Below, one piece after another: positions 2-58,042 of a DNA stretch of 64,000 bases; the first letter of the stretch is position 1; every line of letters starts with the position of its first letter. The position numbers were made by a program, and so were the translations under genes. The notes under the pieces were generated by a model that was not told the DNA's origin, ran no database searches, and saw only the letters and a list, made by a program, of their open reading frames with translations. The DNA comes from Alphaproteobacteria bacterium (GTDB taxonomy: Bacteria > Pseudomonadota > Alphaproteobacteria > Caedimonadales > UBA9215): positions 25,495 to 89,494 of the forward strand of contig JAACSN010000005.1 in assembly GCA_009993885.1 (NCBI GenBank). The letters run 5' to 3'.

Positions 2-1549
2 CAAGAGTTTTTTTCCAACGTTCTTTTACTCGATTCAAAGCATATGGACGCCCAGTTTGAATTGGCCACGGCCTCCTATCACTTGGGTGACCTTAAAACC
101 GCCGCCATGAGCATTGATCGCGTTATGACGGCTCAACCCGATGAAGCGCGCAATATACGCGCGGCAGCTCTCATTTACGCAGCCCTTGGCAGGAAAGAGC
201 AAGCTCAAATTTACCTTGCCAAATATAGTACGTTGCCCATTGGGAAGCGGCACAAGAAATACCTTGAGCGACGTGTACAAGATTGGGAAGATCTTCATAA
301 TTCGGGTCGCCTTGTTGCTCAAGCCGATACTGCGCCGGCAGCCGGGTCGGAAACAGCCCCTGCCCCTGCGGAAACAACTGCAGCCGAACCCGCCGCTGAA
401 ATCGCACCGGAGCCTGTGGCCCCCGCTCCTGCTCCAACGGTCACCCCCGTTGCAGAAGCCCCTAAAGCAGAGCAAGAAAACCAAGTTATCATTAAAGATT
501 TCCAAGAAGATATGATTGTGGTCGACGCTGTGATTATGCGGGTTTCGGAAGCAGGAAAAACATTCAAAGGTAACAATATCATGGAAACTTTCACCATGTC
601 GTTGTCTCCCTTTAACTATTTTAGGGCGCGAAATACTTCAGGTCCAATCGCGGCAGGTGCTCCTATTTTTCCCACAAACAACTCGTCCACATCCAGTAAC
701 ACCTCTCTTGGGGGAGCTGCTGATGCAGGTGAAGCTCTAAAAGGTGGCACAGCCAGCCTCATCACCCAAGGTATTTCCTTTGGAACCCTGAACTATTCCC
801 TTAATATCGCGAACTCCAGCGATGAAGTTGTTGAAATTATTGGACGCCCCACCCTAACCGCAACTGTCGGTAAAGCGGCAGACTTCTTCTCAGGTACAAA
901 TAAACACATTGCCCTTGCAGGCCAATTTGGCGGTAATATTACAGAAACACCTATCGGTACGGAATTAATTGTAACGCCTGTAGAATACAAAGACGGCTTT
1001 ATTACCCTGGACGTCGAACTCAGGGGAAGTAGTATTACCCAAGTGGTCGGAAGTATCATTGCCGATAATTCCACGGCCGTTGAATTTGATATTTTAAAGG
1101 ATCACGTTAAAACAACGGTCAAGGTCAAAGCCGGTGAAACGATAATGTTGGCCGGTATTACCCAACGCGAGCTTAAAACCAGCAAACAGGGTTTCCCCAT
1201 TTTGCAAAATATTCCGGTGATTCAGTACCTCTTTTCCGAAGAAATTTCCCTAAGCGATCGAAAGTCTGTGATGTACCTTTTAACACCGCGAAGTTACAGC
1301 AGAACCATTACGGAAACAAAGCGCTTTTTTGCGAAGGGTGAAGAATACGGTAAACGCCCGCGTCTTGATGAACTCGAAACACGACACAAGGATTGGTATG
1401 ATCCCAGCATCAATAACACACTGATTTTGCAACACCTTGCTCCTGTTTACGATGAATTTAGAACCGGCGACCTCCATGAAATCAAATGGGGTCATGATGA
1501 TGATGTTGCTAAGCAATTAACTTCCATTGCTAATTTCTTATGGTACTAG
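2..1549 (+). CDS. Secretin-family outer-membrane channel (type II secretion / type IV pilus type) with N-terminal TPR-like region; 5' end runs off the window
   Basis: The frame is open from nt 2, with no stop before the first Met at 44. The C-terminal half carries a secretin signature (GETIMLAGITQRELKTSKQGFPILQNIPVIQYLF...SVMYLLTPR). The N-terminus has TPR-like helices followed by a Pro/Ala-rich linker (APAAGSETAPAPAETTAAEPAAEIAPEPVAPAPAP). Confidence 0.75.
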   Translation, partial: QEFFSNVLLLDSKHMDAQFELATASYHLGDLKTAAMSIDRVMTAQPDEARNIRAAALIYAALGRKEQAQIYLAKYSTLPIGKRHKKYLERRVQDWEDLHNSGRLVAQADTAPAAGSETAPAPAETTAAEPAAEIAPEPVAPAPAPTVTPVAEAPKAEQENQVIIKDFQEDMIVVDAVIMRVSEAGKTFKGNNIMETFTMSLSPFNYFRARNTSGPIAAGAPIFPTNNSSTSSNTSLGGAADAGEALKGGTASLITQGISFGTLNYSLNIANSSDEVVEIIGRPTLTATVGKAADFFSGTNKHIALAGQFGGNITETPIGTELIVTPVEYKDGFITLDVELRGSSITQVVGSIIADNSTAVEFDILKDHVKTTVKVKAGETIMLAGITQRELKTSKQGFPILQNIPVIQYLFSEEISLSDRKSVMYLLTPRSYSRTITETKRFFAKGEEYGKRPRLDELETRHKDWYDPSINNTLILQHLAPVYDEFRTGDLHEIKWGHDDDVAKQLTSIANFLWY

Positions 1550-1570
1550 AGTATCAAAAGAACTCTAGAT

Positions 1571-1602
1571 AAAAAAAGAGAGGATAAATCCTCTCTTTTT
1601 TA
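1571..1602. terminator. Bidirectional rho-independent terminator between convergent genes
   Basis: Stem AGAGAGGA (1577-1584), loop TAAA, stem TCCTCTCT (1589-1596). An A-run lies on the left and a T-run on the right. It sits between the secretin stop (1549) and the stop of the minus-strand ORF (1617). Confidence 0.6.
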
Positions 1603-1616
1603 TTCAGATATCCCTG

Positions 1617-2090
1617 TTATTGCATAAAATCGGTAACACGATCTGCTAAGTCCGAATTCTTGGCGGCAATTAGACGTCTATGTGTCGGAGCAAGAAAACG
1701 GCTGTAAATCGTTATTTTTTGCATCTCAAGGTAATCTTCATCTAACGGATTGGAACCCCTCAAGCTGTTGTAAAAACAGTGAATATGCTCCGTTTCTTTT
1801 TCAACGGACAAGCGGCGCGCCGGCTTATCCGAATCTAAAGCTTCCTCATAGCCGTCATAAATTGCCGACCACCCGACTTTAAAATCATCCCACAGATCAT
1901 TATGAACCAAAGATTTAAACCCTTTTAGAAATTCTTCCAAAGAATAGGGAACGTCACGCATGGGAAAAACCTCGTCCACACTAGGTATCTTAACAAGGAC
2001 ATCCTCTACCTCTAAAACATTTTCAGATGACGACGCATTTGCAGACAAAGGACACATCAAGAGCATTACAGTAATTAGTATTTTTTTCAT
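1617..2090 (-). CDS. Hypothetical secreted protein (157 aa)
   Basis: The N-terminal signal peptide is MKKILITVMLLMCPLSANA. I recognise no conserved domain. Confidence 0.5.
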   Translation of the reverse strand: MKKILITVMLLMCPLSANASSSENVLEVEDVLVKIPSVDEVFPMRDVPYSLEEFLKGFKSLVHNDLWDDFKVGWSAIYDGYEEALDSDKPARRLSVEKETEHIHCFYNSLRGSNPLDEDYLEMQKITIYSRFLAPTHRRLIAAKNSDLADRVTDFMQ

Positions 2091-2189
2091 AGACTTAACC
2101 TCCTCGAGAGTTATTTTTTGAGCTTAATAACATTGCCTTTTAAAAACAAGCCTATATGATGAAAAGATAGCTTATACAGGGTTTTACTA

Positions 2190-2879
2190 ATGTCTCCGGT
2201 TCTCTTTTTTCGACACGTTGCAACGAAACGTCTCAAGGCATTCAGCCTTGTAGAACTTGCCATATCTCTTGTTATCATCGGTCTGCTCATTGGCGGGATT
2301 CTAAAGGGTCAGGAACTTCTTGAAAGCGCTCGCCTAAAAACCATTATGACTCAGCTGAACCAATATCGTCTAGCCGCAAATACCTTTGTTGATCGTTACG
2401 GAGCTCTTCCCGGGGATTATGATAAAGCCTCTTCGTACCTAAAAGCAGGTCTTAAAAACGGCAATAACAACGGCATGATTGAAGGCTTCGGCCTTTCCGC
2501 CTCCGGAGGCGCTTCCGGCCATGAAGCTCTCTCTTTTTGGGAGCACCTTGCCGCCGCGGAACTCCTCCCCAACAGTACACCGCCCTCCACCAAGTTAGGC
2601 GGCCTTGTGACCGTTGCCTATGCACCGCTCGACGGCATGCAAGGACATTGGTTTGTGATCGGGAATGCCAACGGCAGTAAAAATGACGGCGCTCTTTTAA
2701 CCCCTCTTCAATGTCTGACCATTGCTAAAAAACTGGATACGGAAGACCCTTTTTCCGGCAACGTCCAAATTAGGAACGGAGTTCAAAAAGGAGGAAAGGG
2801 CGGGCACTGCTTAAAAGATAATAAAATCTTGAATACGGCAACAAAAGATCCGGCTTGTGTCCTTTATGTTAAACTTTAG
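2190..2879 (+). CDS. Prepilin-type N-terminal cleavage/methylation domain protein (pilin or pseudopilin)
   Basis: The class III signal motif is KA|FSLVELAISLVIIGLLIGGIL, with Glu at +5 and a hydrophobic helix. The gene lies close to the secretin gene. Confidence 0.75.
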   Translation: MSPVLFFRHVATKRLKAFSLVELAISLVIIGLLIGGILKGQELLESARLKTIMTQLNQYRLAANTFVDRYGALPGDYDKASSYLKAGLKNGNNNGMIEGFGLSASGGASGHEALSFWEHLAAAELLPNSTPPSTKLGGLVTVAYAPLDGMQGHWFVIGNANGSKNDGALLTPLQCLTIAKKLDTEDPFSGNVQIRNGVQKGGKGGHCLKDNKILNTATKDPACVLYVKL

Positions 2880-3681
2880 AAAACATTTCCGCGCCCCTAA
2901 AATACAAGCTTTTTCTCTGATCGAGATGTCTCTTGTCTTAGCTATCATGGGAACCCTTGCCAGTCTCTCTTTGCCGATGCTTCTGGACTATAAAAGCACG
3001 CAAAAACGCCAACATACAACAAAACATATCGACCTTGTTTTATCGGCAACGGGGACTTTTGCCGCAGCACACCGTGTTCTTCCTTGCCCGGCTTCGAAAA
3101 CCTCTAGGGGGGAACCCGTTGTCTGCACAACCGAAACCCTTAATCTTGCCACAGGTTATGTCCCCTATAAAACCCTTGGTTTAAGTGAGGCCTCTAGCAA
3201 AGACGGCTTTGGCAATCCGTTGCGTTATGCCATAAACCCTCGGCTTTCTTCCCATGAAACTTTTTATGACAATACACATATATCGCCTCTAAAAGTTGTT
3301 GATAATGAGGAAAGAAGTGTTTTTGACCTTCAAAACGATAAAGATAAATTAGCGGTAGTTGTCTTGAGCGAAGGAGAAGCTTTTCGAACCCCCCAAAGCT
3401 CTTTTGAGCGTCGGAACACGGACGAAAGGCTGACTTTTGTAGAGGCTCCCTATTCCGTCAATAAAGAAAATCCCTTTCGCCACATTGTGCGCTGGAGCAC
3501 CCGTAATAATTTATTAACTTACTACGGAAAGTCTGCACCGCTTTCTCAACCGCAAAATGCTTTAGAAAATAATCAGGACGACAGGAGACTGCCCCGGATA
3601 GTGCCTCATGACAGGATTGTGCCCCCTCCTCGGAATCCGCTTCAAAACCCGTTAGGCGGGGATTTTGAGAGTATTTTTTAA
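2857..3681 (+). CDS. Prepilin-type N-terminal cleavage/methylation domain protein (second pseudopilin)
   Basis: The motif is QA|FSLIEMSLVLAIMGTLASLSL. The ORF-track start is GTG at 2857, and ATG at 2866 is an alternative. The gene overlaps the end of the preceding pilin gene. Confidence 0.7.
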   Translation: MSFMLNFRKHFRAPKIQAFSLIEMSLVLAIMGTLASLSLPMLLDYKSTQKRQHTTKHIDLVLSATGTFAAAHRVLPCPASKTSRGEPVVCTTETLNLATGYVPYKTLGLSEASSKDGFGNPLRYAINPRLSSHETFYDNTHISPLKVVDNEERSVFDLQNDKDKLAVVVLSEGEAFRTPQSSFERRNTDERLTFVEAPYSVNKENPFRHIVRWSTRNNLLTYYGKSAPLSQPQNALENNQDDRRLPRIVPHDRIVPPPRNPLQNPLGGDFESIF

Positions 3682-31288: not shown

Positions 31289-32236
31289 CTAAAAACTTAG
31301 GCCTCTTTGACGACGACGGTATAAAAGTGCCGTCGCACGAGGCAAGAGCACATCGCCGCGTAAATAGGTAACAAGAAGAAGCACACCTGCCATAAAAGGA
31401 GAGAGGACCTCGGCTTTCAACCAATTAGTTACAGCTATCTTTTGAAGTTTATTCAAAAAATCAGAGAACTTAAAGCCTTTTTGCAGAGTCGGTTCCGGTG
31501 TTTTAGGAGGTAAACAGACCTTAGAAAGCCTCGGGTATGCGGGCGATACGCCTTTATCAACCCTTATATCACTTTCGGCGATCCCCTTAAATGCGTTAAC
31601 CTTTGATGAGGGAAAAGCAGAAACAAAAGCAAAAGAGTCAAAGCTCATCCCCCCAAACATATTTCTATTTTCTTGGATGCCGTCCCCTCCTGAAGGAGAG
31701 GAAGGAAAAGAAAGTGCGTCCAACGGATCATCGTTTTCTTGTTCGACCCGATTGCAGCTCTCTTTAAAGTTAATTTGCGCCTCTTCTCCTATTGAAAAAG
31801 AGGTCAACAAAGTTGCCCTTGGTCTCATTTGAATAGGATCTTTATAAACCGGTGTTTCTCTTAAAACGGGCTCTTCTCTTTGCGTCCTTTGCTCTGCCTC
31901 CTGAGCGAGCGTTTGGGGTTCAAAGCCACAAACAACTTCTCCTAAATTATTAGCAACCAATTGCATTATGGATTCAAAACGGTTTTGCAAAACGCTATCA
32001 GCCTCGGGATGCAAACGTATCGTCCAATTGAGAGATGAAACGGTAGGCTCGATCTCCCGGGCAATTTGAATATTTGATTGCGATAAGTCAACCCTGACTG
32101 TGCAAAATAGTTTCATGGCTTCCAGCTCTATGAAGGGCTCGGCCATAGCAGCATGGGGCAAACTTGCTGTTCCGGTCATCGGGACGGCTAGCAGAGCGCC
32201 GGTGACAAGACCGAAAGATAAAGAGCGTTTTTTCAT
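31289..32236 (-). CDS. Hypothetical secreted/anchored protein (315 aa)
   Basis: It has a signal peptide (MKKRSLSFGLVTGALLAVPMTGTA) and a C-terminal hydrophobic segment (LSPFMAGVLLLVTYL) followed by a basic tail. I recognise no domain. Confidence 0.5.
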   Translation of the reverse strand: MKKRSLSFGLVTGALLAVPMTGTASLPHAAMAEPFIELEAMKLFCTVRVDLSQSNIQIAREIEPTVSSLNWTIRLHPEADSVLQNRFESIMQLVANNLGEVVCGFEPQTLAQEAEQRTQREEPVLRETPVYKDPIQMRPRATLLTSFSIGEEAQINFKESCNRVEQENDDPLDALSFPSSPSGGDGIQENRNMFGGMSFDSFAFVSAFPSSKVNAFKGIAESDIRVDKGVSPAYPRLSKVCLPPKTPEPTLQKGFKFSDFLNKLQKIAVTNWLKAEVLSPFMAGVLLLVTYLRGDVLLPRATALLYRRRQRGLSF

Positions 32237-40799: not shown

Positions 40800-41762
40800 A
40801 TGAGTACGTTAAAAACAAGAATGAAAAAAGAAATTAATCACATCACATCCGATGCCCTAGAGAGAGCGCAACAAACGCTTCGAAACGGTGACCTTATCGG
40901 ATTGCCGACAGAAACGGTTTACGGACTGGCGGCCAATGCCCTGAGCGACAAAGCTGTTGCAAAGATTTATACCTTAAAAGAGCGTCCCCGTTTCAATCCC
41001 CTTATTGCTCATTTTCCCAATGCCGCCGAGGCTCAAAAATATGTGCATTTTAATGAGTGGGCCAAAACACTTTCCGAGACTTTTTGGCCCGGCCCCCTCA
41101 CCCTGATTCTTAAAAAGAAAGAAGACTGCGGCATTTCTCTTCTCGCGACAGCAGGTCTTGATACCCTTGCCGTTCGAGTGCCTGCTCACCCGATTGCTCA
41201 ACTGCTTTTACAAGGCCTCGAGTTTCCCTTGGTTGCTCCCAGTGCGAACCCGTCGGAATCTTTAAGCCCGACAACAGCTCAACATGTTAAGCGTTCTTTT
41301 CCCGATCTCCTTGTCGTAGACGGAGGTTCCTGCACCGTCGGCCTTGAATCAACCATTGTAGATCTGACAGGAAACATTCCTGTTATTTTACGCCCGGGGC
41401 TCTTAACTAAAAATGATATTGAAAAAGCCCTTCTTCTTACCCTTGGCGATAAAGCTGAAAGCAACGTCATCAAAGCACCGGGGCAGCTTAAACGTCATTA
41501 TGCCCCCTCTATTCCCTTACGCCTTAATATAAAAAATCTTCATGAAGGTGAAGCGCTGTTGTCCTTTGGCCCTCACACTTTTACGGCTCGAAAGGAAATC
41601 AACTTAAGCCTCACTTGCAACCTTGAAGAAGCAGCAGGCAATCTTTTTGCAGCGTTAGCAGAGCTCGATTCTTCTCAATATAAGGGCATTGCCGTTATGC
41701 CTATTCCAAACGACGGCATTGGTCTTGCCGTTAATGATCGCCTGAACCGTGCTTCGGCTTAA
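40800..41762 (+). CDS. tsaC: L-threonylcarbamoyladenylate synthase (Sua5/YwlC/TsaC family, long form with Sua5 C-domain)
   Basis: GDLIGLPTETVYGLAANA, KERPRFNPLIAHF, PGPLTLIL, APSANPS and the C-terminal Sua5 domain are present. Confidence 0.88.
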   Translation: MSTLKTRMKKEINHITSDALERAQQTLRNGDLIGLPTETVYGLAANALSDKAVAKIYTLKERPRFNPLIAHFPNAAEAQKYVHFNEWAKTLSETFWPGPLTLILKKKEDCGISLLATAGLDTLAVRVPAHPIAQLLLQGLEFPLVAPSANPSESLSPTTAQHVKRSFPDLLVVDGGSCTVGLESTIVDLTGNIPVILRPGLLTKNDIEKALLLTLGDKAESNVIKAPGQLKRHYAPSIPLRLNIKNLHEGEALLSFGPHTFTARKEINLSLTCNLEEAAGNLFAALAELDSSQYKGIAVMPIPNDGIGLAVNDRLNRASA

Positions 41763-41769
41763 CACTCTT
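41707..41769. repeat. Direct repeat copy 1 (63 bp): last 18 codons of tsaC, the stop codon and 7 nt
   Basis: CAAACGACGGCATTGGTCTTGCCGTTAATGATCGCCTGAACCGTGCTTCGGCTTAACACTCTT is identical at all 63 positions to 43559-43621. The flanking bases differ on both sides. Confidence 0.95.
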
Positions 41770-41770
41770 A

Positions 41771-43459
41771 TCAAGAAACGCCTTTGGAAAGGCAACACGT
41801 TCTAAAAGCGTTTCGTAGAAAGTATTTCAACGTTTTCAAAGGAAATTCCTCCGAACCGGAGTGAGGAATATGAACCGTAAACCTTAGATAAGGATTACGC
41901 GCCCTTGTATCTGACAAATTTGGCAACCAATACCCAACAGCAGACCCCGGCTTGGGTTTGCTATCATATTTACCGTTGACGGCTTTCAAAAAAGAATCAA
42001 AATCGGTCTTAGAAACAGGTCTTGTACCCGCTCCTATAACGGCTTTATAAAATGCCTCGGCTTTCTCACCGAAATTAAATTTCGGAAGTGTATTACCAAC
42101 TGTAGCAGCAGAAAATTCAACAGAAGGTAAGGCCGCATCTTCTTCATTTCTTATATAGGCCGGAATAATGCGAGATACAACTTCTTCAAAATACCATTCG
42201 TCAAAATGAAACTCCGAAAGCGCTTCATCTCCTTCAAAAGCAGCGGCAACATTAGTTTCTTCTACCTTACTGCCTTCCTCTGCCACAACGACTTTTTCAA
42301 TAGTTTCAGCATCTATAACAACAAGGGGCATAATATCCGAATTCTTTATAATAGGTTCTCCCGCAGCTGATGCAGACTCTATAGAAACTCTATGGAGTGA
42401 TCTCCCTCTTTTTTGAGAGTTCTTTTTTTTTGCCTTACGTCTCGCTTTCTTTTTGCCTTTACTTTGATTTTCGGCCTTCATTTTAAGATTTTTGACTTCA
42501 GGTTTTGAGGGATTTTCTATAGAAACGAGATCTCCATAGCTTTCTAATAAAAATTCATGAATAAACGTGCCAATATTCCCTTCCATTTCTGAGAATTTAA
42601 ATTTTCCTCTCTCCAAAAAATTTGAGAACATGAGGTTACGATATTTCTCACTGATATTTGTGTGAATATTAAACATCTTGTGAGACCTAATATAGGTTCG
42701 AGCATGGGAAAATAGAAGGCTTTCTAAGGCAGACCATTCATAGGCTGATCTTTGGCCTTTAGGAGTTGGGAAAACAGACTCTAAAAGCACTATGATATTT
42801 ACGAATAACTTGGAACAAAAGAGATTATTCTCTCCTTCATATAGCTCTGATAAAAGAGCTTCTTCCTTATCACTTAGCCCGTGAAAAACATTAGGATAAG
42901 AAGAAACATCACCACTTGAAAGAACGTCGAACATTCTCTTCACCAAGGATCCTAAATCAGAATTTTCAAATTCTCTATCCTCCGATTTTAAATTACAGCA
43001 GTTATAGAAAGATCTAATCGCCCCCCTAAGAACAGCAGTGATGTCTTGTTTGACACGTCCGACCAGTTCTGCAGAAATTTCTTCATTTCGATGCTCAAAT
43101 AAAAGTTCCATGGAAGCATAAAGCCCCTCAGAAAAACAATAATCAGTAAAACGATCTTGCACCTGAAAGAAATAGAAAGGTAAATAAGAAGGGCAGTTGA
43201 AATCTCTATAGAAATCCACAGCAGACTGTGGAATGTCCGTCTTAATTTCTGAAACACGTACCGGGTCTATTTCCCCTTGTCGGGTATGTACGTCTAAATA
43301 CTCCAAGTGCGCTGCTGTCCAAGCGCGATACTCTTCTAACTCCTCCCATACTTTTGTAAGAACTTTAAGCTTAGACATATCATTATCATCAATCCTAGTC
43401 CCGTTAGAAAGACTTATAAAAAAACAAAAAGAAATGAGAAACCGAAATATAAATGACAT
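41771..43459 (-). CDS. Hypothetical secreted protein (562 aa) with NLS-like basic cluster and HicA/YcfA-like C-terminal region
   Basis: The signal peptide is MSFIFRFLISFCFFISLSNG. The basic cluster KGKKKARRKAKKKNSQKRGR spans residues 334-353. The C-terminus DFDSFLKAVNGKYDSKPKPGSAVGY...LRFTVHIPHSGSEEFPLKTLKYFLRNAF resembles the HicA fold pattern as I recall it. The gene is visibly more AT-rich than its neighbours. Confidence 0.6.
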   Translation of the reverse strand: MSFIFRFLISFCFFISLSNGTRIDDNDMSKLKVLTKVWEELEEYRAWTAAHLEYLDVHTRQGEIDPVRVSEIKTDIPQSAVDFYRDFNCPSYLPFYFFQVQDRFTDYCFSEGLYASMELLFEHRNEEISAELVGRVKQDITAVLRGAIRSFYNCCNLKSEDREFENSDLGSLVKRMFDVLSSGDVSSYPNVFHGLSDKEEALLSELYEGENNLFCSKLFVNIIVLLESVFPTPKGQRSAYEWSALESLLFSHARTYIRSHKMFNIHTNISEKYRNLMFSNFLERGKFKFSEMEGNIGTFIHEFLLESYGDLVSIENPSKPEVKNLKMKAENQSKGKKKARRKAKKKNSQKRGRSLHRVSIESASAAGEPIIKNSDIMPLVVIDAETIEKVVVAEEGSKVEETNVAAAFEGDEALSEFHFDEWYFEEVVSRIIPAYIRNEEDAALPSVEFSAATVGNTLPKFNFGEKAEAFYKAVIGAGTRPVSKTDFDSFLKAVNGKYDSKPKPGSAVGYWLPNLSDTRARNPYLRFTVHIPHSGSEEFPLKTLKYFLRNAFRTCCLSKGVS

Positions 43460-43558
43460 AACAAAAATCCATATACTAAATATTTAAAATATTTAAAATA
43501 TATATAACATTATAAAAAATAAATAAAGAAAATAATTTATTTTATTTTATAATTGCTT

Positions 43559-43621
43559 CAAACGACGGCATTGGTCTTGCCGTTAATGATCGCCTGAACC
43601 GTGCTTCGGCTTAACACTCTT
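43559..43621. repeat. Direct repeat copy 2 (63 bp), an orphan tsaC 3' fragment in an AT-rich intergenic region
   Basis: It is identical to 41707-41769. The upstream flank is non-coding, very AT-rich sequence. Confidence 0.95.
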
Positions 43622-43675
43622 TAGAACCTTCCTTATCCCCTCTCAAAATAAAAAATACAATATAAAATCATCAAA

Positions 43676-43690
43676 TTAATATTTTTTTAA
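43676..43690. promoter_or_regulatory. TTAA-N7-TTAAC motif (full CtrA-box consensus) upstream of the nucleotidyltransferase gene
   Basis: TTAATATTTTTTTAA is followed by C and lies 49-63 nt upstream of the ATG at 43739. Confidence 0.35.
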
Positions 43691-43738
43691 CAAAAAGAAT
43701 GTAATTTTAAATTGAATAATAACTTAAAAGGTGTATTT

Positions 43739-45964
43739 ATGTTTCGTTATTTATGTTTAACCTCAGCTTTTTCATTAATTACTTCAAGTGTTGCCTTGGC
43801 TGAAATGCCAACGGAAGACTCGATATTTACAGAACCCCAAAGCACTCAAAAGACAGAGCGGGGAAAAATAACGCCGGAACGTCTTGAAAATCTACAAAAA
43901 CTCATGAACAAAGGAAGCGAAGCTCCTGCCCCCAAAGAACATGAACCCGTTGGTAAACTTTCGAAAGAACGTATAGAGGTTTTTGGAGAATCCGTTTTAA
44001 AAGAACAGGGTGAGGCCATAAAAAAAGAGACTGTTTCCAAGACCGTTGAAACACCAAAAGCAGATACGGAAAATGAAGGAATAGTCTCGTCAAAGACAGG
44101 TCAAAAATCGATAGAATTAACACAAGAACAAGAAAAAGCAATGAGGGGAAAGTCAGGACACTCCTATTTTGAGGAATTGACTCACGATCTCTACACGTCT
44201 CCTCTAGGGAAATGGCTTTCTGATGTTTATGGTGCGTCACGTGAGGAAATAACACGCTGGTTCAGTGAAACCGAGGCCGATCGCTATGGCTTAAAACGCT
44301 TACGTGATAATGCCATTGACGAATATGATTACGAAGTGCGAAAAGCAGCCCCTCAATACAACCAAATCACTAAAGACATTTCTGACGAAAACATTAAATG
44401 GGTTGGGAAGATCATAGACAGTATTGTAAAGGATCTTGGTGTGGAAACACCTCCGGGATTTAGTATCTTTACCATGGGCTCCCTTGCACGGGGCGAAAGC
44501 GGTTTCTACACGGATCTCGAGATTGGCTTTTTAGTTAATGACGATGCCATGACACCTGAAAATATGAAAACACTTCTTTTAATTGCGAATTCTTTAAACC
44601 AACGCCTTTTCTTCCTAGGGGAACACCCCGACTACGGCGGCTACGGTATGCGTCTTGATGAAGCTGCCAATGCCCCGTTATACCTCAGGTTTGGATATGA
44701 TAAGTTGACACCGGAAGAAGCTAGAAAACAAATGGTTTCTGCTCTAACCAATTATGATTTCGAAAAAATCCCTTGGGGGGGAAGCCGTCTCTTTATTTCA
44801 ACACCATCGAAATTGGCGGCACACTCAGATCCTGACTACATAGAAAAAGCAGATAGTGAAGATGCCTATCTCAATGGTCAAAAACGCAAGAAAATGATTG
44901 AGGATGAGTACAAGAAAGCACGCTCCGACCCTAAGAATGCAGGAATCTCGAATACACAGTTAAAAGAAGGTATTCGCTATTTAGTGGATCTCATCGAAAA
45001 ACCTCTTGGGGTAAAGGATCGCCGCGAATCCAACAACATTGTTGTTTTAGGTCGCAATATGATGAATATTTACGGTGAGCAAGAAACCTTTGACACTTTT
45101 ATAAAGGCCAGAGAACCCTTTTTATCCGGAACGGCAAAAGATAACGCTGATCGCTATGTCTCTCGTCGCCACGAGCTTGCAATGGAAACAATGAAAGAAG
45201 ATATTATAAAACGTGGCGGAGACCCTTCAAGCATCTTCCTTACAGGGAAGTTGGGAGACAAGGTCGACATTAAACGCGAACTCTACCGTTTTAGCGAACA
45301 GTTTGTAACAAACCTAGGATTTTATTTTGATATCAAAACACAAAATACAATAGACATTGTTGGCGAACTGATGGAACAAGGCATTATTTCCCAAGAAATT
45401 GGAGAAAAACTTCAAGACTACATGAACTTTATGGTCGGATTGCGCCTTAAACAACAACGGGTTTTAAGTTCACAAGCACATGCCGTGTACCTAAATGAAG
45501 AAGCCTTTCAAAAAGATATTAGAAAGCTGCAAGAAGAGAATTCTGCCCTTGAGAAAAATCTAGCTTTCTTAGAAGAGAGTCAATCTTCAAAAAAAGCTCT
45601 GACGGACGCAAGAAAAGCCGTAACAGACAAAAAACATGAAATTGACGAACTTAAAAAAATGGCACCCGGTAAGATCGTGTCAACGGAAGAAATTGATATA
45701 CTCAATACAAAATACCTTCCTTTTGCTATAGAGCTTTTCCAACTGTCAAAGGATTGGATTTCAGGAAAAGACAATGCCCTTGGCGGCAAAGGTGCAGCAA
45801 TCGGCATTAAAGCCATCGCGCCTTCTCTCCCTACCTCGGAGGGGACAGATACTGAGGGTTCTTCTTCCGAAAAGAAGCTTCCCCTAATAGAAAGGCCGAA
45901 TTTGCCCGGCCCGGGAATCATTCCTTCAGAAACTGAAAGTGCTACGGCAGCCCCGGCAGCCTAA
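43739..45964 (+). CDS. Signal-peptide protein with DUF294-type nucleotidyltransferase core and DUF294_C-like helical domain plus C-terminal coiled coil
   Basis: The signal peptide is MFRYLCLTSAFSLITSSVALA. The NTase motif is FTMGSLARGESGFYTDLEIGFLV (GS-x10-D-x-E), followed by GEHPDYGGYGMRLDEAANAP. The later segment DIKRELYRFSEQFVTNLGFYFDIKTQNTIDIVGELMEQGIISQEIGEKLQDYMNFMVGLRLKQQ resembles the DUF294 substrate-binding domain. The ORF track starts at TTG 43712; the ATG at 43739 is preferred. Confidence 0.65.
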   Translation: MFRYLCLTSAFSLITSSVALAEMPTEDSIFTEPQSTQKTERGKITPERLENLQKLMNKGSEAPAPKEHEPVGKLSKERIEVFGESVLKEQGEAIKKETVSKTVETPKADTENEGIVSSKTGQKSIELTQEQEKAMRGKSGHSYFEELTHDLYTSPLGKWLSDVYGASREEITRWFSETEADRYGLKRLRDNAIDEYDYEVRKAAPQYNQITKDISDENIKWVGKIIDSIVKDLGVETPPGFSIFTMGSLARGESGFYTDLEIGFLVNDDAMTPENMKTLLLIANSLNQRLFFLGEHPDYGGYGMRLDEAANAPLYLRFGYDKLTPEEARKQMVSALTNYDFEKIPWGGSRLFISTPSKLAAHSDPDYIEKADSEDAYLNGQKRKKMIEDEYKKARSDPKNAGISNTQLKEGIRYLVDLIEKPLGVKDRRESNNIVVLGRNMMNIYGEQETFDTFIKAREPFLSGTAKDNADRYVSRRHELAMETMKEDIIKRGGDPSSIFLTGKLGDKVDIKRELYRFSEQFVTNLGFYFDIKTQNTIDIVGELMEQGIISQEIGEKLQDYMNFMVGLRLKQQRVLSSQAHAVYLNEEAFQKDIRKLQEENSALEKNLAFLEESQSSKKALTDARKAVTDKKHEIDELKKMAPGKIVSTEEIDILNTKYLPFAIELFQLSKDWISGKDNALGGKGAAIGIKAIAPSLPTSEGTDTEGSSSEKKLPLIERPNLPGPGIIPSETESATAAPAA

Positions 45965-51719: not shown

Positions 51720-52571
51720 ATGTATATTAAATCTCTCCATGATGTTATTGATTCCTATGATAATTTTGTCGTAGATGTATGGGGTGTTGTGCACAACGGC
51801 CATACTGTTTTTCCCCATGTTTTGGAAACCCTGCAAGAAATTAAAGATCTCAACAAACATGTGATTTTTTTGTCTAATGCTCCTCGGCGCGCCCATGATC
51901 TTGCACGAGATTTAGAACACTTTGGCGTCACACCCGACCTTTACCGTAACATTCACACATCGGGCGAAGATGCTTACGAACACTTAAGCACTCGAGGAAG
52001 TAACCGTTACCAAGGATTAACTAACAAGTGCTACGCTTTTTTAATGCCCGGCCATACCCATATGCTTGAAGATTGCCGTCTGGAAAGGGTCGGAGACCTC
52101 AACGATGCCTCTTTTATTTTAAACCTACAGCCTCCTCGGGGCGATAATCAAACGAGCGCTGACTACGAGGCTCTCCTGAAGGAGGCTGTTGAAAAGAAAC
52201 TACCTATGGTTTGTGTAAATCCGGATCTTGGTGTTATTTTAGGTGACCAAGTTCACCAATGTGCCGGAACCTTAGCCCAATATTATGAATCTTTGGGCGG
52301 CCTCGTCCATTATCACGGCAAACCCTTTGACTCCGTTTATAAAAGCACCTTGCAAAAATTTCCGACCCCCGATAAAAAACGCACCCTGGCCATTGGAGAT
52401 TCTTTGCGAACAGATATTAAAGGTGCCTTCGATTTTGGCATTGACTCTATTTTAGTTCTCAGCGGCCTTGATGCCCACCATAGCGATCAAGAATCCTTAG
52501 AAAAAAAGGCTCTGGCCTTTTTGAAAGATTCGATTTTAAGGCCGACTTATGTTTGTGCCGAACTGCGTTAA
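51720..52571 (+). CDS. HAD-superfamily subfamily IIA hydrolase (TIGR01459-like)
   Basis: The N-terminus YDNFVVDVWGVVHNG, then FLSNAPR and the C-terminal AIGDSLRTDIKGA are present. The start is moved from the ORF-track 51687 to ATG 51720. Confidence 0.8.
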   Translation: MYIKSLHDVIDSYDNFVVDVWGVVHNGHTVFPHVLETLQEIKDLNKHVIFLSNAPRRAHDLARDLEHFGVTPDLYRNIHTSGEDAYEHLSTRGSNRYQGLTNKCYAFLMPGHTHMLEDCRLERVGDLNDASFILNLQPPRGDNQTSADYEALLKEAVEKKLPMVCVNPDLGVILGDQVHQCAGTLAQYYESLGGLVHYHGKPFDSVYKSTLQKFPTPDKKRTLAIGDSLRTDIKGAFDFGIDSILVLSGLDAHHSDQESLEKKALAFLKDSILRPTYVCAELR

Positions 52572-52603
52572 CTTGTAAGATTAAACTAAACAGGGAGAAT
52601 ATC

Positions 52604-53647
52604 ATGTCAGCTACAAAGCGCTTCGGCGTCCTTTTTTTCACACTCTTTTTCTGTACTGTCGAAAGCAGCTTTGCCTCAAATAACAAAGAGGCTTTTTCTA
52701 TCTCGGAAGACATTCGAGAAAATTTGACAGTCTTGATGCAGGCGCTCTGCCCTCACATTCCATGTGGTGAAGACGGACATTATTTGAGATCCGCTACCCC
52801 TGACGAATACCTTGTTTTTAATGCTGAAACAAAAACCCAAGAAGGTCCTTATTATAATATTGCCGACTGGTTTACGGCTCCTATAGAGCGTTTAACAACA
52901 GATTGTACTTTTGCTTTGTGTGCTTCTTACAAACTTCTTCACCCTGTTGCCCTTAGAACCCCGGAAGAGGAGGAGGAAGGGGAAGGTTTATTTTTTGGTG
53001 AATTCGTCCACTCATTTTTTGACGGTAAAAACAACTTTCTTGGGGTGATTTCCGTAGAGCCCCATAAAACAACAGAACCGGCAACGCCTCATATTAATTA
53101 TTATATCTTCAAGAAACACCAAGGAAAAAAATATTCAACACTCATGATTTCAAGCTTTGTCGAATACCTTAAAGCCTTAGAGGGAAAAGAACTTCCCCAA
53201 ATCACTCTCCCAAAATCCTCTACGTGCCTTGAGATATTAAGAAATACCCTTACCGAAACACCCGACCCGGAAAAATTAAGCCTCTCGGATATCCCCTCTT
53301 CGCTTAATCGTGTCGGCCCTATATGTGCCCATGTCCCTTTAGAAAATCCCCCCTCCTTTGTTCCTGTTAGCAAAGCTCTGTTTTTCACAGGACGTTTTCA
53401 CCTTGAACCGGGATTTGCCGAGGCGCTCGGCTCTCTTATAGAAGGCATCACCGAAGATGAAACAAGAGCCGTCGGCATTCATTTAATTTTTTCAAGTCAA
53501 CCTCCCGATGAAAGCGCATTTTCATACCGTGAAAAAAAACTCATGCTCTACTTTAAAGAATATTGCATGAAAAAACGCGAGGAACGAGCTTCCTTTTATC
53601 CTATCTTACGAGATTATGCCTTTGGCATCGTTGAAAGCGACTATTGA
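52604..53647 (+). CDS. Hypothetical secreted protein (about 347 aa)
   Basis: A GGGAG RBS lies 6 nt upstream of ATG 52604. The signal peptide is MSATKRFGVLFFTLFFCTVESSFA. I recognise no secure domain. Confidence 0.55.
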   Translation: MSATKRFGVLFFTLFFCTVESSFASNNKEAFSISEDIRENLTVLMQALCPHIPCGEDGHYLRSATPDEYLVFNAETKTQEGPYYNIADWFTAPIERLTTDCTFALCASYKLLHPVALRTPEEEEEGEGLFFGEFVHSFFDGKNNFLGVISVEPHKTTEPATPHINYYIFKKHQGKKYSTLMISSFVEYLKALEGKELPQITLPKSSTCLEILRNTLTETPDPEKLSLSDIPSSLNRVGPICAHVPLENPPSFVPVSKALFFTGRFHLEPGFAEALGSLIEGITEDETRAVGIHLIFSSQPPDESAFSYREKKLMLYFKEYCMKKREERASFYPILRDYAFGIVESDY

Positions 53648-53794: not shown

Positions 53795-55237
53795 ATGATC
53801 CGCAAGCCAACTTCCCGACAAATCGAAGCCCTTTTCAAACAAATTAAAGATCAAGGCATCATTGATGTGGATTTCCGCTTTACAGACCCTCGGGGGGTCT
53901 GGCACCACATGACTTTTCATATTGACGGATTGAGCAACGATATTTTCGAAAACGGCATTGCTTTTGACGGCTCTTCCATTGCAGGTTGGAAACCTATTCA
54001 CGACTCCGATATGATCATGATTCCCGACCTAAGCCGCATTGTGACAGACCCTTTTGCTAAGAATCCGACACTCATTGTTTTCTGTAATATTCTTGATCCC
54101 GCAACACAAAAAGGCTACGAGCGTGATCCTCGCACCGTTGCCGGAAAAGCAGAAGCATACCTTGTGGAATCAGGACTTGGAACAACTGCCTATTTTGGAC
54201 CCGAGCCTGAATTTTTTGTCTTCGATCGGGTTAATTACGATGTTAATGAAAACTACGCCTTTTATAACCTTCATTCTGAAGAATGCGCGTCGCCAACCAA
54301 CCCTTTTTTCAATAATCACGACCTGCTGACCGACGGCCTTTCCCATCGACCTAATAAAGGAGCGGGGTATGCCCCTGTTGCCCCCGTTGATCGCTTGAGT
54401 GATTTGCGTTCCGACATGCTTCTCGTTCTCAAAGACTTGGGCATGGGCGTCATCAAACATCACCATGAAGTGGCCTCAGCCCAACATGAACTCGGCTTTG
54501 ATTACTCAACCCTTTTGACAACAGCAGATAACCTGCAACTTTTTAAATACGGTATTCTCAACATTTGCCATCAACATGATAAAACAGCAACTTTTATGCC
54601 GAAACCGGTTTCAGGAGACAACGGCTCCGGAATGCATGTTCACCAATCCCTCTGGGACGGAGACACCCCCCTCTTCCTCGGAGACCGATATAATGATCTT
54701 TCCCAAACGGCATTGTATTATATAGGCGGTATTTTAAAACATGCTCGGGCTCTGAATGCCTTTACCAATCCGACAACAAACAGTTATAAGCGTCTTGTCC
54801 CGGGATATGAAGCACCTGTTTATAGAGCTTATTCTGCTCGGAACCGTTCTGCAGCTATCCGAATTCCTTATAGCGCAAACCAAAAAGCAAAACGGATCGA
54901 AGTGCGCTTTCCCGACCCCACAGCCAACCCCTACCTCTGTCTTTCGGCTATGTTAATGGCCGGTATTGACGGCATTAAAAATAAAATCGACCCCGGGGAG
55001 GCCTTAGAAGAAAACCTATATGAAAAAGACATTTCACAACTTGAGGGAGATTTCTTAATGTCCTCTAATTTGCACCAAGCTATGGAATCTCTGAAAGAAG
55101 ACTCGGATTTTTTAACCCAAGGTAATGTTTTTACAAAAGACCAAATTGAAAGCTATATACAACTCAAGAGGCAGGAAATTGACTATGTCAGCCAATGCCC
55201 GAGTCCTGCAGAATTTAAACTTTATTATAGCAGCTAA
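53795..55237 (+). CDS. glnA: Glutamine synthetase type I
   Basis: FRFTDPRGVWHH, FDGSSIAGW, KPVSGDNGSGMHVHQSLW, NSYKRLVPGYEAP and IEVRFPDPTANPYL are present. Confidence 0.96.
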   Translation: MIRKPTSRQIEALFKQIKDQGIIDVDFRFTDPRGVWHHMTFHIDGLSNDIFENGIAFDGSSIAGWKPIHDSDMIMIPDLSRIVTDPFAKNPTLIVFCNILDPATQKGYERDPRTVAGKAEAYLVESGLGTTAYFGPEPEFFVFDRVNYDVNENYAFYNLHSEECASPTNPFFNNHDLLTDGLSHRPNKGAGYAPVAPVDRLSDLRSDMLLVLKDLGMGVIKHHHEVASAQHELGFDYSTLLTTADNLQLFKYGILNICHQHDKTATFMPKPVSGDNGSGMHVHQSLWDGDTPLFLGDRYNDLSQTALYYIGGILKHARALNAFTNPTTNSYKRLVPGYEAPVYRAYSARNRSAAIRIPYSANQKAKRIEVRFPDPTANPYLCLSAMLMAGIDGIKNKIDPGEALEENLYEKDISQLEGDFLMSSNLHQAMESLKEDSDFLTQGNVFTKDQIESYIQLKRQEIDYVSQCPSPAEFKLYYSS

Positions 55238-55291: not shown

Positions 55292-58042
55292 ATGGTGAAG
55301 GTTAACAAAAAAAAGCCGGGATTTTCTGCATTGGGTAAAGGCGAAACAACAGAAAGTATTGAAACATCCGTTATTCAAAAGCTATTCAAACGCTTTTCCC
55401 ACACCTTTACCCAATTGGAAAAGAAAATGAATGCGGAGAATATCAACTCCCATGTTAAAATTTCAAAATATGTAAGTCGCGTTTTATATAGCTGTTTTAT
55501 TACTACACTTTTTACCGTTACATACCATGTTTATAAAGATAATGAATTTGAGCGTCACTATAACCAACAGTTGGTCTCAAATTTCAATGCACAACTAGAT
55601 AACGCCTTTTATCGCTATTTTGCAATGCTTCATGGTATAAAAGCCGTTTTTTCAATGTCTCCGGATATGACTTTAAATCAATGGACACCCTATGCGCAGC
55701 AAATTTTATACCCGAAGCGCTATCCCGGAATTCATAGCATTGCTGTTATTAAACCTGTTTATAAAAAAGATATTGCAGCCTTTTTAGAACAAGACCGGAA
55801 ACAAAATTCTCGAAATTTAAAAGTAATCTCTCCTGCAGACTATACCCTTGATGAGTTAGGAATCATTCAATATGCTGCCTCTAGGGTTTCCAAATCAGGG
55901 GAAGGTTTGAATGTTCGACAATATAAATCTACCCGCCAAGCGTTAGATTATTCCCGAGATGAAAATAAAACAAAAATGATCTCCGTAAAACACCTAAACG
56001 GAGAAGACCAAGAGAAATTCAAACCTGTTTTTGTTATTTATGCCCCTATTTATCATGCAAATATGCCGATAGATACCCCTCTTTCAAGGCGACAAAATTT
56101 TTACGGATGGGTAGCAACGCCTATTTATATTCGGGAACTTTTCCAAAACGTCTTAAAATCAAACCCCGATTTTAAAAAGCTGCGGGTAACCCTTACCCTT
56201 AATCAAGAAAACCCCATAGACTTTCCGATAACGCCTCGATCATCTCAAAAGCTGACCGTTTTTAATCAAACATTCCACAAAACAATTTCAGGATTAACCT
56301 TTCAAATTCATACGGGATATTACTATCCGGGGCTCACACTTTACGGAGGAAGGCTTACCCTTCCGGGCTCTGTTATCACCGTCTTACTTATTGCTTTCAT
56401 TATAAGTCTGTTGGTTACGGCTTTTTTCTGGTCCGTTCTAACGATGCGCCAGCGGGCACTTGATCTTGCAAACCGAATGACAACTAATCTTTTTCACCAA
56501 GAGCAAAAATACCGCACACTCATTCAAAATGCCCCCGGCGTTATTTTTAGTTGTACCCCCAAACGCAATTGGCGAATGGATTATTTGAGTGAGCAATTTC
56601 AAGAAATTACCGGTTACGACCCCGTTGAATTCCTTAATAATACCCGTCGTTATATCGAAATTATCCATCCTGATGATATCTTGAAAGTTGAAAAAACCAT
56701 CGGCCTTAAGCCGCACCCCAACCACGAATACTTTTTAGATTATCGTCTGATTCATAAGAACGGAAGTATTCGTTGGATGCATGAGCGAGCAAAAGTTGTC
56801 CGTCTACCCCATACCCAAGAACTGCATCTTATGGGCTATTTCTTTGATGTTACCGCCCAAAAAGAAAAAGAATCCGAGTATCGCAACCTTGTTAATGCCC
56901 TTGAAAGTGCCGTTAACGGTGTTGCCTTTATCAATGAAAACGGGTTCCACTTACGTATTAATGAAGCCTATAGCGACATTATGGATGCTAATGCTCAAGA
57001 ACTACAATATAAAAGTTTTTTTGAACTTCTAAGTTCCCGTGATCAAGAAAAGCTCAGAGCTCTTATTGCCAACGGTTTTGAAGATAAAGATCGTGCTCTT
57101 TTAAATGTTGAAGCCTGCACCTTGGAGGGAAAGACCATTTACCTTTCTCTTGTGATTGTACCTGCCTATTCTGATGATCTTACAAAGAAAATGACAGGTT
57201 TTTACGTCTTTGCAAAAGATATGTCTAATGAAGCCCGTCGGGAAAAGCAACTTTCCGAAGCCGTTAAAGCGGCAGAAGCTGCCAATCAAACAAAATCAAC
57301 CTTCCTTGCCACGATGAGCCATGAACTTAGAACGCCGCTTAATGCTATTATCGGCTATAGCGATATGCTTTTAGAAGATGCCCAAGAAAATGAAGATGAC
57401 ATGATTGTGGGAGATCTTACAAAAATTAACAACTCGGGTCGCCACCTTTTATCTATCATTAATGATATCTTGGATGTTTCAAAGCTCGAGGCCGGAAAAA
57501 TGACGGTTCACCTTGAAACCTTTGACATCAAAGAGATTTCAAAAGCAATATTGGATATTATCTATCCCGCTGCTAAAAAGAATAACAATAAAGTCATCCT
57601 TAACCTTCCCGATGATATTGGAGAAATGTACTCTGACCTTACAAAACTACGTCAGATGCTTTTTAACCTTCTCAGCAATGCCTGTAAATTCACAAAAGAC
57701 GGAACGGTCACCATTGATGTTAAAGCCTCTTCAAAAGGCAACAGAGAATTTGTTTCCTTTGTTATTTCCGATTCGGGAATCGGCATTACAGATGAGCAAA
57801 TGGCGAAACTTTTCCAACCTTTTTCCCAAGCCGATAGCTCAACCACGCGTAATTTCGGCGGTACGGGACTCGGCCTTACCATTACGAAAAAATTCTCTGA
57901 AATTCTAGGCGGTAAAATCATCGTCACGAGTAAGACCGGTGTCGGCACAAAATTTACCCTTGTTCTCCCTCGCAATACACGCCAAAATAGTGCCGATGAA
58001 TATAACGGCAACAAAAAAAGCAAGGGACAAAGCGCAGCCTAA
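55292..58042 (+). CDS. CHASE-domain sensor histidine kinase (CHASE-TM-PAS-PAS-HisKA-HATPase, no receiver)
   Basis: A CHASE-like periplasmic region is followed by a TM helix (VITVLLIAFIISLLVTAFFWSVL), PAS regions, the H-box FLATMSHELRTPLNAIIGY, and the G-boxes DSGIGI and GGTGLGLTITKK. The start may be the Met at 55427. Confidence 0.85.
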   Translation: MVKVNKKKPGFSALGKGETTESIETSVIQKLFKRFSHTFTQLEKKMNAENINSHVKISKYVSRVLYSCFITTLFTVTYHVYKDNEFERHYNQQLVSNFNAQLDNAFYRYFAMLHGIKAVFSMSPDMTLNQWTPYAQQILYPKRYPGIHSIAVIKPVYKKDIAAFLEQDRKQNSRNLKVISPADYTLDELGIIQYAASRVSKSGEGLNVRQYKSTRQALDYSRDENKTKMISVKHLNGEDQEKFKPVFVIYAPIYHANMPIDTPLSRRQNFYGWVATPIYIRELFQNVLKSNPDFKKLRVTLTLNQENPIDFPITPRSSQKLTVFNQTFHKTISGLTFQIHTGYYYPGLTLYGGRLTLPGSVITVLLIAFIISLLVTAFFWSVLTMRQRALDLANRMTTNLFHQEQKYRTLIQNAPGVIFSCTPKRNWRMDYLSEQFQEITGYDPVEFLNNTRRYIEIIHPDDILKVEKTIGLKPHPNHEYFLDYRLIHKNGSIRWMHERAKVVRLPHTQELHLMGYFFDVTAQKEKESEYRNLVNALESAVNGVAFINENGFHLRINEAYSDIMDANAQELQYKSFFELLSSRDQEKLRALIANGFEDKDRALLNVEACTLEGKTIYLSLVIVPAYSDDLTKKMTGFYVFAKDMSNEARREKQLSEAVKAAEAANQTKSTFLATMSHELRTPLNAIIGYSDMLLEDAQENEDDMIVGDLTKINNSGRHLLSIINDILDVSKLEAGKMTVHLETFDIKEISKAILDIIYPAAKKNNNKVILNLPDDIGEMYSDLTKLRQMLFNLLSNACKFTKDGTVTIDVKASSKGNREFVSFVISDSGIGITDEQMAKLFQPFSQADSSTTRNFGGTGLGLTITKKFSEILGGKIIVTSKTGVGTKFTLVLPRNTRQNSADEYNGNKKSKGQSAA

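Follow-up and report, generated by a model that had tools for sequence, protein, structure and literature searches.

The 64,000-nucleotide stretch analyzed here (the window; contig JAACSN010000005.1 of assembly GCA_009993885.1) encodes, on the forward strand at 43739-45964 including the stop codon, a 741-amino-acid nucleotidyltransferase (NTase) with a predicted Sec signal peptide. The protein belongs to the DUF294 family, its modeled fold is that of the enzymes DrrA and GlnE, its catalytic and nucleotide-pocket residues are conserved, its gene is under purifying selection and its N-terminal export signal is retained among relatives. We propose, with about even confidence, that it is a Sec-exported, host-directed protein nucleotidyl (adenosine monophosphate, AMP) transferase of the GlnE/DrrA (DUF294) type from a Holosporales-related bacterium. 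The results support the working hypothesis of the preliminary description, a secreted protein nucleotidylyltransferase, in each part that the analysis could probe.

A Pfam scan matched DUF294 (PF03445) at residues 205-302 with 29.4 bits against a gathering score of 21, and DUF294_C (PF10335) at residues 506-576 with 26.5 bits against 22.5. No cyclic nucleotide monophosphate (cNMP)-binding or CBS domain was found in the protein at E<=1. The preliminary description of this DNA, made from its letters alone, had called the product a DUF294-type NTase lacking these sensor modules, and the scan agrees with it. SidM_N (PF20879) matched residues 224-292 with 21.4 bits, under its cut-off of 27. Pfam GlnE (PF03710) did not match the protein, and GlnD was the sole model offered by NCBIfam, at 11.9 bits against a cut-off of 631.

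The structural results place the protein beside known adenylylating enzymes. An AlphaFold model of residues 130-690, built from a 34-sequence alignment (A3), had a predicted local distance difference test score (pLDDT) of 90.5 and a predicted template modeling score of 0.86. When this model was compared with the PDB by Foldseek, the best match was DrrA(16-352) bound to Rab8a (6yx5_B; E 1.8e-6, probability 1.00, template modeling score 0.65 normalized to DrrA), followed by the adenylylating C-terminal domain of Escherichia coli GlnE (3k7d, two chains, E 7e-6 and 9e-6) and the GlnE N-terminal adenylyl-removing domain (1v4a, E 1.2e-4). Beyond these four matches nothing in the PDB was significant; terminal uridylyltransferases (TUTases) and minimal nucleotidyltransferase (MNT)/HEPN proteins came next at E ~1 or above. 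DrrA and the two GlnE domains are the only significant structural neighbors, as expected from the kinship to the GlnE/DrrA fold that had been suggested earlier. Similarly, a phmmer search of all PDB sequences ranked DrrA first (E 0.026) and aligned GSLARGESGFYTDLE with GSLAKAQATEYSDLD of DrrA.

The NTase signature of the preliminary description is MGSLARGESGFYTDLEIGFLV, located at residues 246-266 (nucleotides 44474-44536) and thus inside the range that it had been assigned. Within it lies the catalytic motif G247-S248-L-x9-D259-x-E261 (44477-44521, + strand), which aligns with DrrA. The corresponding motif in DrrA is G98-S99-L100-x-D110-x-D112 together with D150, and in GlnE the acidic residues are D701, D703 and D753 (PMC7815794). 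The distance from the glycine to the first aspartate is 12 residues both in the window protein (G247 to D259-x-E261) and in DrrA (G98 to D110-x-D112). A third metal-binding carboxylate is proposed to be D307 (44657-44659, + strand), which sits in an MRLDEA motif; we infer from its position, without superposition, that it is the counterpart of DrrA D150 and GlnE D753. The protein and its homologs therefore show the pattern of the polymerase-beta superfamily, G-[GS]-x9-13-D-x-[DE] with a downstream carboxylate.

G247, S248, D259, E261 and D307 are unchanged in 50/50 full-length relatives. Also invariant in all 50 are R251, G255, T258, G303, G348, K512, R517 and Q579, and D510 and Y516 are each kept in 49/50. 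The preliminary description had made its case depend on retention of the catalytic acids in homologs and on detection of an NTase fold; the acids are retained in every full-length relative, and the fold was recovered both by Pfam and by Foldseek of the model. It had numbered the acids D268 and E270; the residues are present, and counted from the ATG they are D259 and E261, the earlier count having evidently begun at an upstream TTG. Taken together, these residues indicate an apparently catalytically competent NTase.

The open reading frame can begin at TTG 43712 or at ATG 43739 and ends with the stop codon at 45962-45964. A Shine-Dalgarno-like AAGGTG, read directly from the sequence at 43728-43733 (+ strand), stands 5 nt before ATG 43739, and because of it we number the protein from that ATG. 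An identical protein (P0001) is present on 15 metagenome contigs. Its closest named relative is the ortholog in a Holosporales metagenome-assembled genome (MAG), UBA9215 (locus L001). Compared with L001, the ratio of nonsynonymous to synonymous substitution rates (dN/dS) is 0.097 overall, and by part 0.05 in the core, 0.19 in the linker, 0.23 in the helical extension, 0.17 in the tail and 0.31 in the signal peptide; all of these values are approximate because dS is ~1.3-1.5, near saturation. The NTase core is under purifying selection. A second copy of the NTase was considered within the window and rejected, and a promoter and terminator scan around the gene gave no signal above shuffled background.

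The first 21 residues (43739-43801, + strand) form a predicted Sec signal peptide, assigned by inspection of its n/h/c architecture and by its conservation. The N-terminus reads MFR, then YLCLTSAFSLITSS, then VALA↓E, with the predicted signal peptidase I cleavage at an A-x-A site. We looked within the first ~30 residues for a positive n-region, an uncharged h-region of 8-15 residues and small residues at -3 and -1, and all of these features are present. No second hydrophobic segment was found in the protein; over 19-residue stretches the Kyte-Doolittle mean peaks at 1.49 (residues 5-23). In the four closest homologs (P0002-P0005) the sequences have diverged and small-x-small sites are nevertheless kept (VLA↓K, IKA↓D, AFA↓A and AFA↓A), and signal-peptide features are retained in orthologs at 44-80% identity. 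Since its dN/dS is 0.31, the signal region is translated and constrained.

Furthermore, a rule-based survey found a signal-like N-terminal segment in 24/50 full-length family members, and cleavage sites of the small-x-small type can be read in most of the more distant signal-bearing N-termini listed. One relative, P0041 (631 aa), carries a lipobox, LTGC (…LVLAMWLTGC↓GDR), in place of the signal peptidase I site, which suggests a membrane-tethered extracytoplasmic form of the enzyme. The delivery signal in this family appears to be interchangeable: members have a Sec signal peptide or a lipobox, or lack both. The cleavable-looking signal peptide noticed earlier is therefore upheld as a prediction. 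A membrane anchor on a cytosol-facing protein, which had been named as one finding that would refute the idea, is disfavored by the short hydrophobic region, the kept cleavage site, the acidic flank and the lipobox relative; by the positive-inside rule the acidic flank EMPTED, which follows the hydrophobic stretch, lies outside.

Downstream of the signal, residues 22-142 (43802-44164, + strand) form a variable linker rich in E, K, T and S. It is predicted to be disordered, given poor conservation and low model confidence: it is mostly missing in P0004 and P0005 (44-46% identical), and its pLDDT is <50 in a model built from a 5-sequence alignment, whose pLDDT as a whole is just 44.5. Long helices of the catalytic module follow at residues ~143-233 (44165-44437, + strand); pLDDT climbs past 90 from ~residue 180, and the signal-less relatives begin at ~143. 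The ~200 novel N-terminal residues mentioned in the preliminary description thus resolve into two parts, since the description fits the variable residues 22-142, whereas ~143-233 are conserved helices of the family core.

The polymerase-beta-type NTase domain comprises residues 205-302 (44351-44644, + strand). The helical DUF294_C domain, of the KNTase_C/inactive-HEPN clan, comprises residues 506-576 (45254-45466, + strand), contains the motif D510-I-K512-R-x-L-Y516-R517 and coincides with the helical segment already likened to DUF294. A family-specific three-helix C-terminal extension occupies residues 587-674 (45497-45760, + strand), with helices at 587-613, 618-639 and 649-674 (pLDDT >90) and nearly invariant P643 and P661. 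This region had been taken for a coiled coil; it is instead a conserved, confidently modeled helical extension and not a free coiled coil. The tail rich in Pro, Ser, Thr and Ala was correctly described and spans residues 681-741 (45779-45961, + strand), ending ...ESATAAPAA. It is kept in the L001 ortholog to its end (...ESAAAAPAA), is missing from P0004 and P0005, and is restricted to the window protein and this closest ortholog.

Word-indexed protein searches returned just 5-7 close relatives, among which only L001 had an organism name, and UBA9215 was the sole match among 185,579 species-representative genomes. An exhaustive profile search of 1.84 billion representative proteins yielded 446 clusters at E<=1e-3 and 40 at E<=1e-30, the strong matches being mostly 540-735 aa long and spanning the whole core. 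All 34 aligned members match DUF294 (PF03445), 24/34 match DUF294_C (PF10335) and 8/34 match SidM_N at E<=0.01. Each of the 34 lacks the sensors. Scans of 14 further deep-search matches found no cNMP or CBS domain, with DUF294 matched in 12 and the other two lacking it, one of which (P0061) is a spurious repeat-protein match. Several of these further matches carry TPR or ankyrin repeats, and one relative combines ankyrin, DUF294 and TPR. The sensor-less architecture, remarked on earlier as unusual, is true of the window protein but is not rare, being that of all 34 aligned members and 12/14 further matches.

In a rough neighbor-joining tree, 19/25 signal-less members fall in one derived clade, which includes proteins of Candidatus Berkiella named at NCBI as 'DUF294 nucleotidyltransferase-like domain-containing protein', and the remaining 6/25 are scattered among signal-bearing lineages. 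Hardly any of the signal-bearing relatives could be given a name or taxon from their clusters, so their taxonomy is deduced from contig content alone. The only plasmid match of the window core was a Neochlamydia 'TPR protein' of ~24% identity. Overall, the family numbers hundreds of sequence clusters, nearly all of which come from metagenomes alone; it occurs in Holosporales-like alphaproteobacteria and Candidatus Berkiella and, at a greater distance, in Neochlamydia. The MAG that carries L001 also holds a second, partial NTase copy (P0006, 78% identity).

Based on these results, we propose the following mechanism. The 21-residue signal peptide would direct export through Sec and would be cleaved after VALA, leaving a mature protein made of a flexible linker and one compact module. 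In this module G247/S248, D259, E261 and D307 would hold Mg2+ and the nucleoside triphosphate (NTP), and the helical DUF294_C domain would complete the nucleotide pocket with K512 and R517; the fold and the conservation are observed, and the chemistry is deduced from them. An exported NTase needs NTPs and would therefore have to act in the host cell, or in a periplasm that is in contact with host cytosol. We propose that the protein would leave the periplasm for an NTP-containing host compartment, through a type II-like secretin, in vesicles or by release in the manner of Holospora periplasmic proteins. One such Holospora protein, which bears a putative signal peptide, reaches the host nucleus after its release from the periplasm (PMC9866348). 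A candidate for the secretin route is a secretin-family outer-membrane protein at 44-1549 (+ strand; Pfam Secretin, E 2e-25), whose NCBIfam GspD and PilQ scores are far under their cut-offs; a prepilin-like gene at 2857-3681 would belong to the same weakly supported route.

In the host, the enzyme would move AMP or another nucleoside monophosphate (NMP) onto a protein hydroxyl, by analogy with DrrA and GlnE. Transfer to host proteins is suggested because the only structural neighbors are protein (de)adenylylating enzymes: DrrA modifies Rab1 Tyr77 and GlnE modifies glutamine synthetase. The signal-less Candidatus Berkiella clade would deliver the same module by another route, which in such Legionellales-like bacteria we suspect to be Dot/Icm type IV secretion.

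A host-directed role is suggested by the eukaryote-like effector genes that accompany family members. On one contig (L003; GCA_052915985.1, JBLFLA010075085.1), two adjacent genes for RBR-type E3 ligases (RING + IBR) at 257-3071 lie directly upstream of P0010, a signal-bearing family member, and the contig also encodes hisS, gpsA, uppS and lspA. Contigs of other relatives encode an ankyrin protein and a eukaryote-type kinase, a RING protein, Pkinase genes, or a TLC ATP/ADP translocase. The domain itself also occurs in the relative with ankyrin and TPR modules, on the Neochlamydia plasmid and in the published NEX2 proteins (PMC4209131). Holosporales and Berkiella are lineages known from inside protists, and the window bacterium is Holosporales-related and probably protist-associated.

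Several observations weigh against this proposal. The signal peptide is a prediction from sequence rules and from its conservation, and passage across the outer membrane is putative. The secretin matches GspD and PilQ weakly, and the window showed no other genes of type II secretion. In sequence the protein is only marginally similar to DrrA (E 0.01-0.03 in searches of PDB size), with SidM_N under the Pfam cut-off, and by Pfam the GEF (guanine nucleotide exchange factor) and P4M domains that define the Rab1 biology of DrrA are absent from the window protein. No intracellular-lifestyle marker was found in the window, and host association rests on the 75%-identical ortholog in a single Holosporales MAG. 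That ortholog itself carries an in-frame stop at ~3960, at the position of window Q667 (ELF*LSKDW), with the downstream tail conserved in frame. Additionally, no conserved partner gene, such as one for an immunity protein, a de-AMPylase or a chaperone, was found across eight genomic contexts.

The main alternative, itself rather unlikely, is that the enzyme stays in the periplasm, receives host adenosine triphosphate (ATP) through porins and nucleotidylates an envelope protein or glycan, tuning the envelope to the energy state of the host. A signal peptide or a lipobox puts the catalytic domain outside the cytoplasm in either case, and the predicted lipoprotein P0041 fits retention better than secretion. 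No dedicated secretion genes adjoin the NTase gene, the conserved Pro-rich tail could be a tether, and a TLC ATP/ADP translocase encoded on the contig of a sister-clade relative implies ATP in such periplasms. We entertain only as a speculation, and a fairly improbable one, the broader idea that in energy-parasitic endosymbionts host ATP bound for ATP/ADP translocases is also used by a resident, Sec-exported enzyme of the DrrA/GlnE type to nucleotidylate envelope proteins. Periplasmic retention is difficult to reconcile with the signal-less Berkiella clade, which has the same core yet cannot be periplasmic by a Sec signal, and with the ankyrin, TPR and F-box fusions, which point to eukaryotic targets. 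It also counts against retention that we know of no periplasmic protein nucleotidylation system.

Host-directed protein modification also has to be set against a non-protein substrate, such as a small molecule, a nucleotide (in a cyclase- or ligase-like reaction), a lipid, a glycan or a nucleic-acid end, which are substrates of many polymerase-beta superfamily members. The layout of a polymerase-beta NTase with a KNTase_C/HEPN-clan domain is common to aminoglycoside NTases and MNT antitoxins (PMC3710099), DUF294 has no characterized substrate, and weak Foldseek matches to TUTases and MNT/HEPN proteins were obtained. We consider this improbable, since the sole significant neighbors were DrrA and the two GlnE domains, with TUTase and MNT matches at E ~1 or above.

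There is a very small chance that the enzyme works in the removal direction, as a phosphorolytic or hydrolytic de-nucleotidylase that reverses host or bacterial AMPylation like the GlnE adenylyl-removing domain. That domain (1v4a) shares the fold and the acidic triad and is itself a significant match; DrrA and the adenylylating domain of GlnE score better, however, and the sequence gives no clue to direction. Finally, we give little credence to an uncleaved N-terminus, with the protein either cytoplasmic from an in-frame Met at residue 23 or anchored in the inner membrane facing the cytoplasm, where it would act on a bacterial target in the way of ordinary DUF294, GlnD or GlnE enzymes. A glutamine synthetase gene 8 kb away fits this reading. 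Against it, the Shine-Dalgarno-like site precedes ATG 43739, the hydrophobic N-terminus is kept as a feature and not as a sequence in orthologs and in about half of the family, the flank is acidic, the signal region has a dN/dS of 0.31, and neither the length nor the hydrophobicity of the N-terminal stretch suffices for a stable anchor.

The NTase gene is flanked in the window by the housekeeping genes prmC, uvrB, tsaC, rpsA, cmk, tadA and fumC. Divergent from it, on the minus strand at 41771-43459, is an orphan gene for a 562-aa protein with a signal-peptide-like N-terminus (MSFIFRFLISFCFFISLSNG) and a KR-rich stretch resembling a nuclear localization signal (KGKKKARRKAKKKNSQKRGR). This protein had no Pfam, NCBIfam or PDB match, and GC content here is low (0.357 for the block at 42001-44000). 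The JGI gene call of the orphan starts 27 codons late and omits the signal. The divergent pairing is also found in L001, where the orphan is 42-45% identical, including its N-terminus; because this identity is so low, the gene must evolve fast. It is absent beside the more distant NTase homologs. The orphan gene may be linked to the NTase gene. In L001 the ortholog of the orphan is split by a frameshift at ~1357-1387, and this frameshift and the in-frame stop in the NTase gene reflect either assembly errors in the MAG or recent decay of both genes.

The orphan gene is bracketed exactly by the two copies of a perfect 63-nt direct repeat, at 41707-41769 and 43559-43621. The first copy consists of the final 56 nt of tsaC/sua5 plus 7 nt, and the second falls within AT-rich intergenic sequence, 118 nt before the NTase start. 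All contigs of the window population (L005-L007) have the repeat, and L001 lacks it. The repeat resembles an att-type duplication of the 3' end of a gene; no integrase was found near it. A structured RNA in the intergenic region 5' of the NTase gene was also considered and rejected, as the region had no Rfam match and a folding z-score of -0.98, and the stretch is a copy of the tsaC 3' end.

Near the start of the window, the secretin gene is followed by two open reading frames without a family match, at 1617-2090 (- strand) and 2190-2879, and then by a gene at 2857-3681 whose product bears a prepilin-type N-terminal cleavage/methylation motif. This region may be a divergent remnant of a type II secretion system or of a type IV pilus. 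Elsewhere in the window, no Pfam match was obtained for open reading frames at 26296-27981 (- strand, 561 aa), 52553-53647 (+ strand, 364 aa) and 31289-32236 (- strand, 315 aa), the first two of which also lacked an NCBIfam match. A fourth, at 17202-18521 (+ strand, 439 aa), matches just the last ~50 residues of TraB/PrgY/GumN. These poorly matched genes may be lineage-specific or may serve host interaction. The window also encodes glutamine synthetase (glnA, 53795-55237), followed by a CHASE-PAS-PAS histidine kinase (55292-58042); no GlnE or GlnD gene is present in it.

This protein is less novel than it first appeared, since members without sensors are widespread and effector-like symbiont proteins containing DUF294 have been published (PMC4209131). 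Our literature search found no report of a stand-alone, Sec-signal-bearing family, of its division into signal-bearing lineages and a signal-less clade, or of its structural kinship with DrrA. So far, adenylyltransferase domains of the DrrA type have been regarded mainly as a Legionella feature. If the family acts on host proteins, it would represent an old and widespread AMPylation/nucleotidylation toolkit of protist symbionts, whose eukaryotic targets might be conserved. If the enzyme is periplasmic, it would open a new compartment for nucleotidylation chemistry and would be, to our knowledge, the first periplasmic protein AMPylation system. Either way, DUF294, an uncharacterized Pfam family, gains a concrete, testable function.

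Canonical DUF294 proteins usually combine cNMP-binding, CBS, DUF294 and DUF294_C domains, and their function is uncharacterized. The window protein resembles them in matching both PF03445 and PF10335 above the gathering scores. In contrast to them, it lacks the sensors, is predicted to be extracytoplasmic and is part of a sensor-less radiation.

The protein shares its fold and metal-binding triad with GlnE and GlnD (PMC7815794), and transfer of NMP to a protein tyrosine is presumably the same. GlnE, however, is a cytoplasmic enzyme with adenylyl-removing and adenylyltransferase domains in tandem (~950 aa), whereas the window protein has a single NTase module, and unlike GlnD it has no HD or ACT domains. 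An identity as GlnE or GlnD was therefore rejected, given also scores far under the cut-offs.

A published parallel in architecture is the NEX2 family of Neochlamydia, amoeba symbionts in which DUF294 is combined with an F-box, sometimes OTU, and TPR (Domman et al. 2014, PMC4209131). Both contain a sensor-less DUF294-type NTase, in NEX2 within putative effectors of amoeba symbionts. The Neochlamydia plasmid match of the window core agrees with this family. NEX2 proteins have 1000-1700 aa or more with eukaryote-like targeting modules, whereas the window protein consists of the core on its own and a Sec signal.

DrrA/SidM is the best structural neighbor (6yx5; also 3nku) and the best PDB sequence match. 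Both proteins have the G-S-L...D-x-[DE] spacing and join an NTase domain to a helical domain of the KNTase_C/HEPN clan. DUF294_C and the C-domains of GlnD and GlnE have been assigned to the HEPN clan as inactive domains, and DrrA has been described as a fusion of NTase and HEPN (PMC3710099), a classification that matches the two-part core of the window protein. Both also come from bacteria living in protists, probably so in the case of the window organism, and DrrA is delivered to its host. The differences are considerable. Identity in the structural alignment is ~12%, and the second acid of the motif is Glu in the window protein and Asp in DrrA. The window protein lacks the Rab1-GEF and phosphatidylinositol 4-phosphate-binding P4M domains, has a Sec signal where DrrA is delivered by Dot/Icm type IV secretion, and adds N-terminal helices, the three-helix C-terminal extension and the Pro-rich tail. 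A 2015 in silico survey built hidden Markov models for a separate 'DrrA family' (PMC4454073). Taken together, these comparisons make the window protein formally a member of DUF294/DUF294_C that is like DrrA and GlnE in fold and motif, and a member of neither of those two families.

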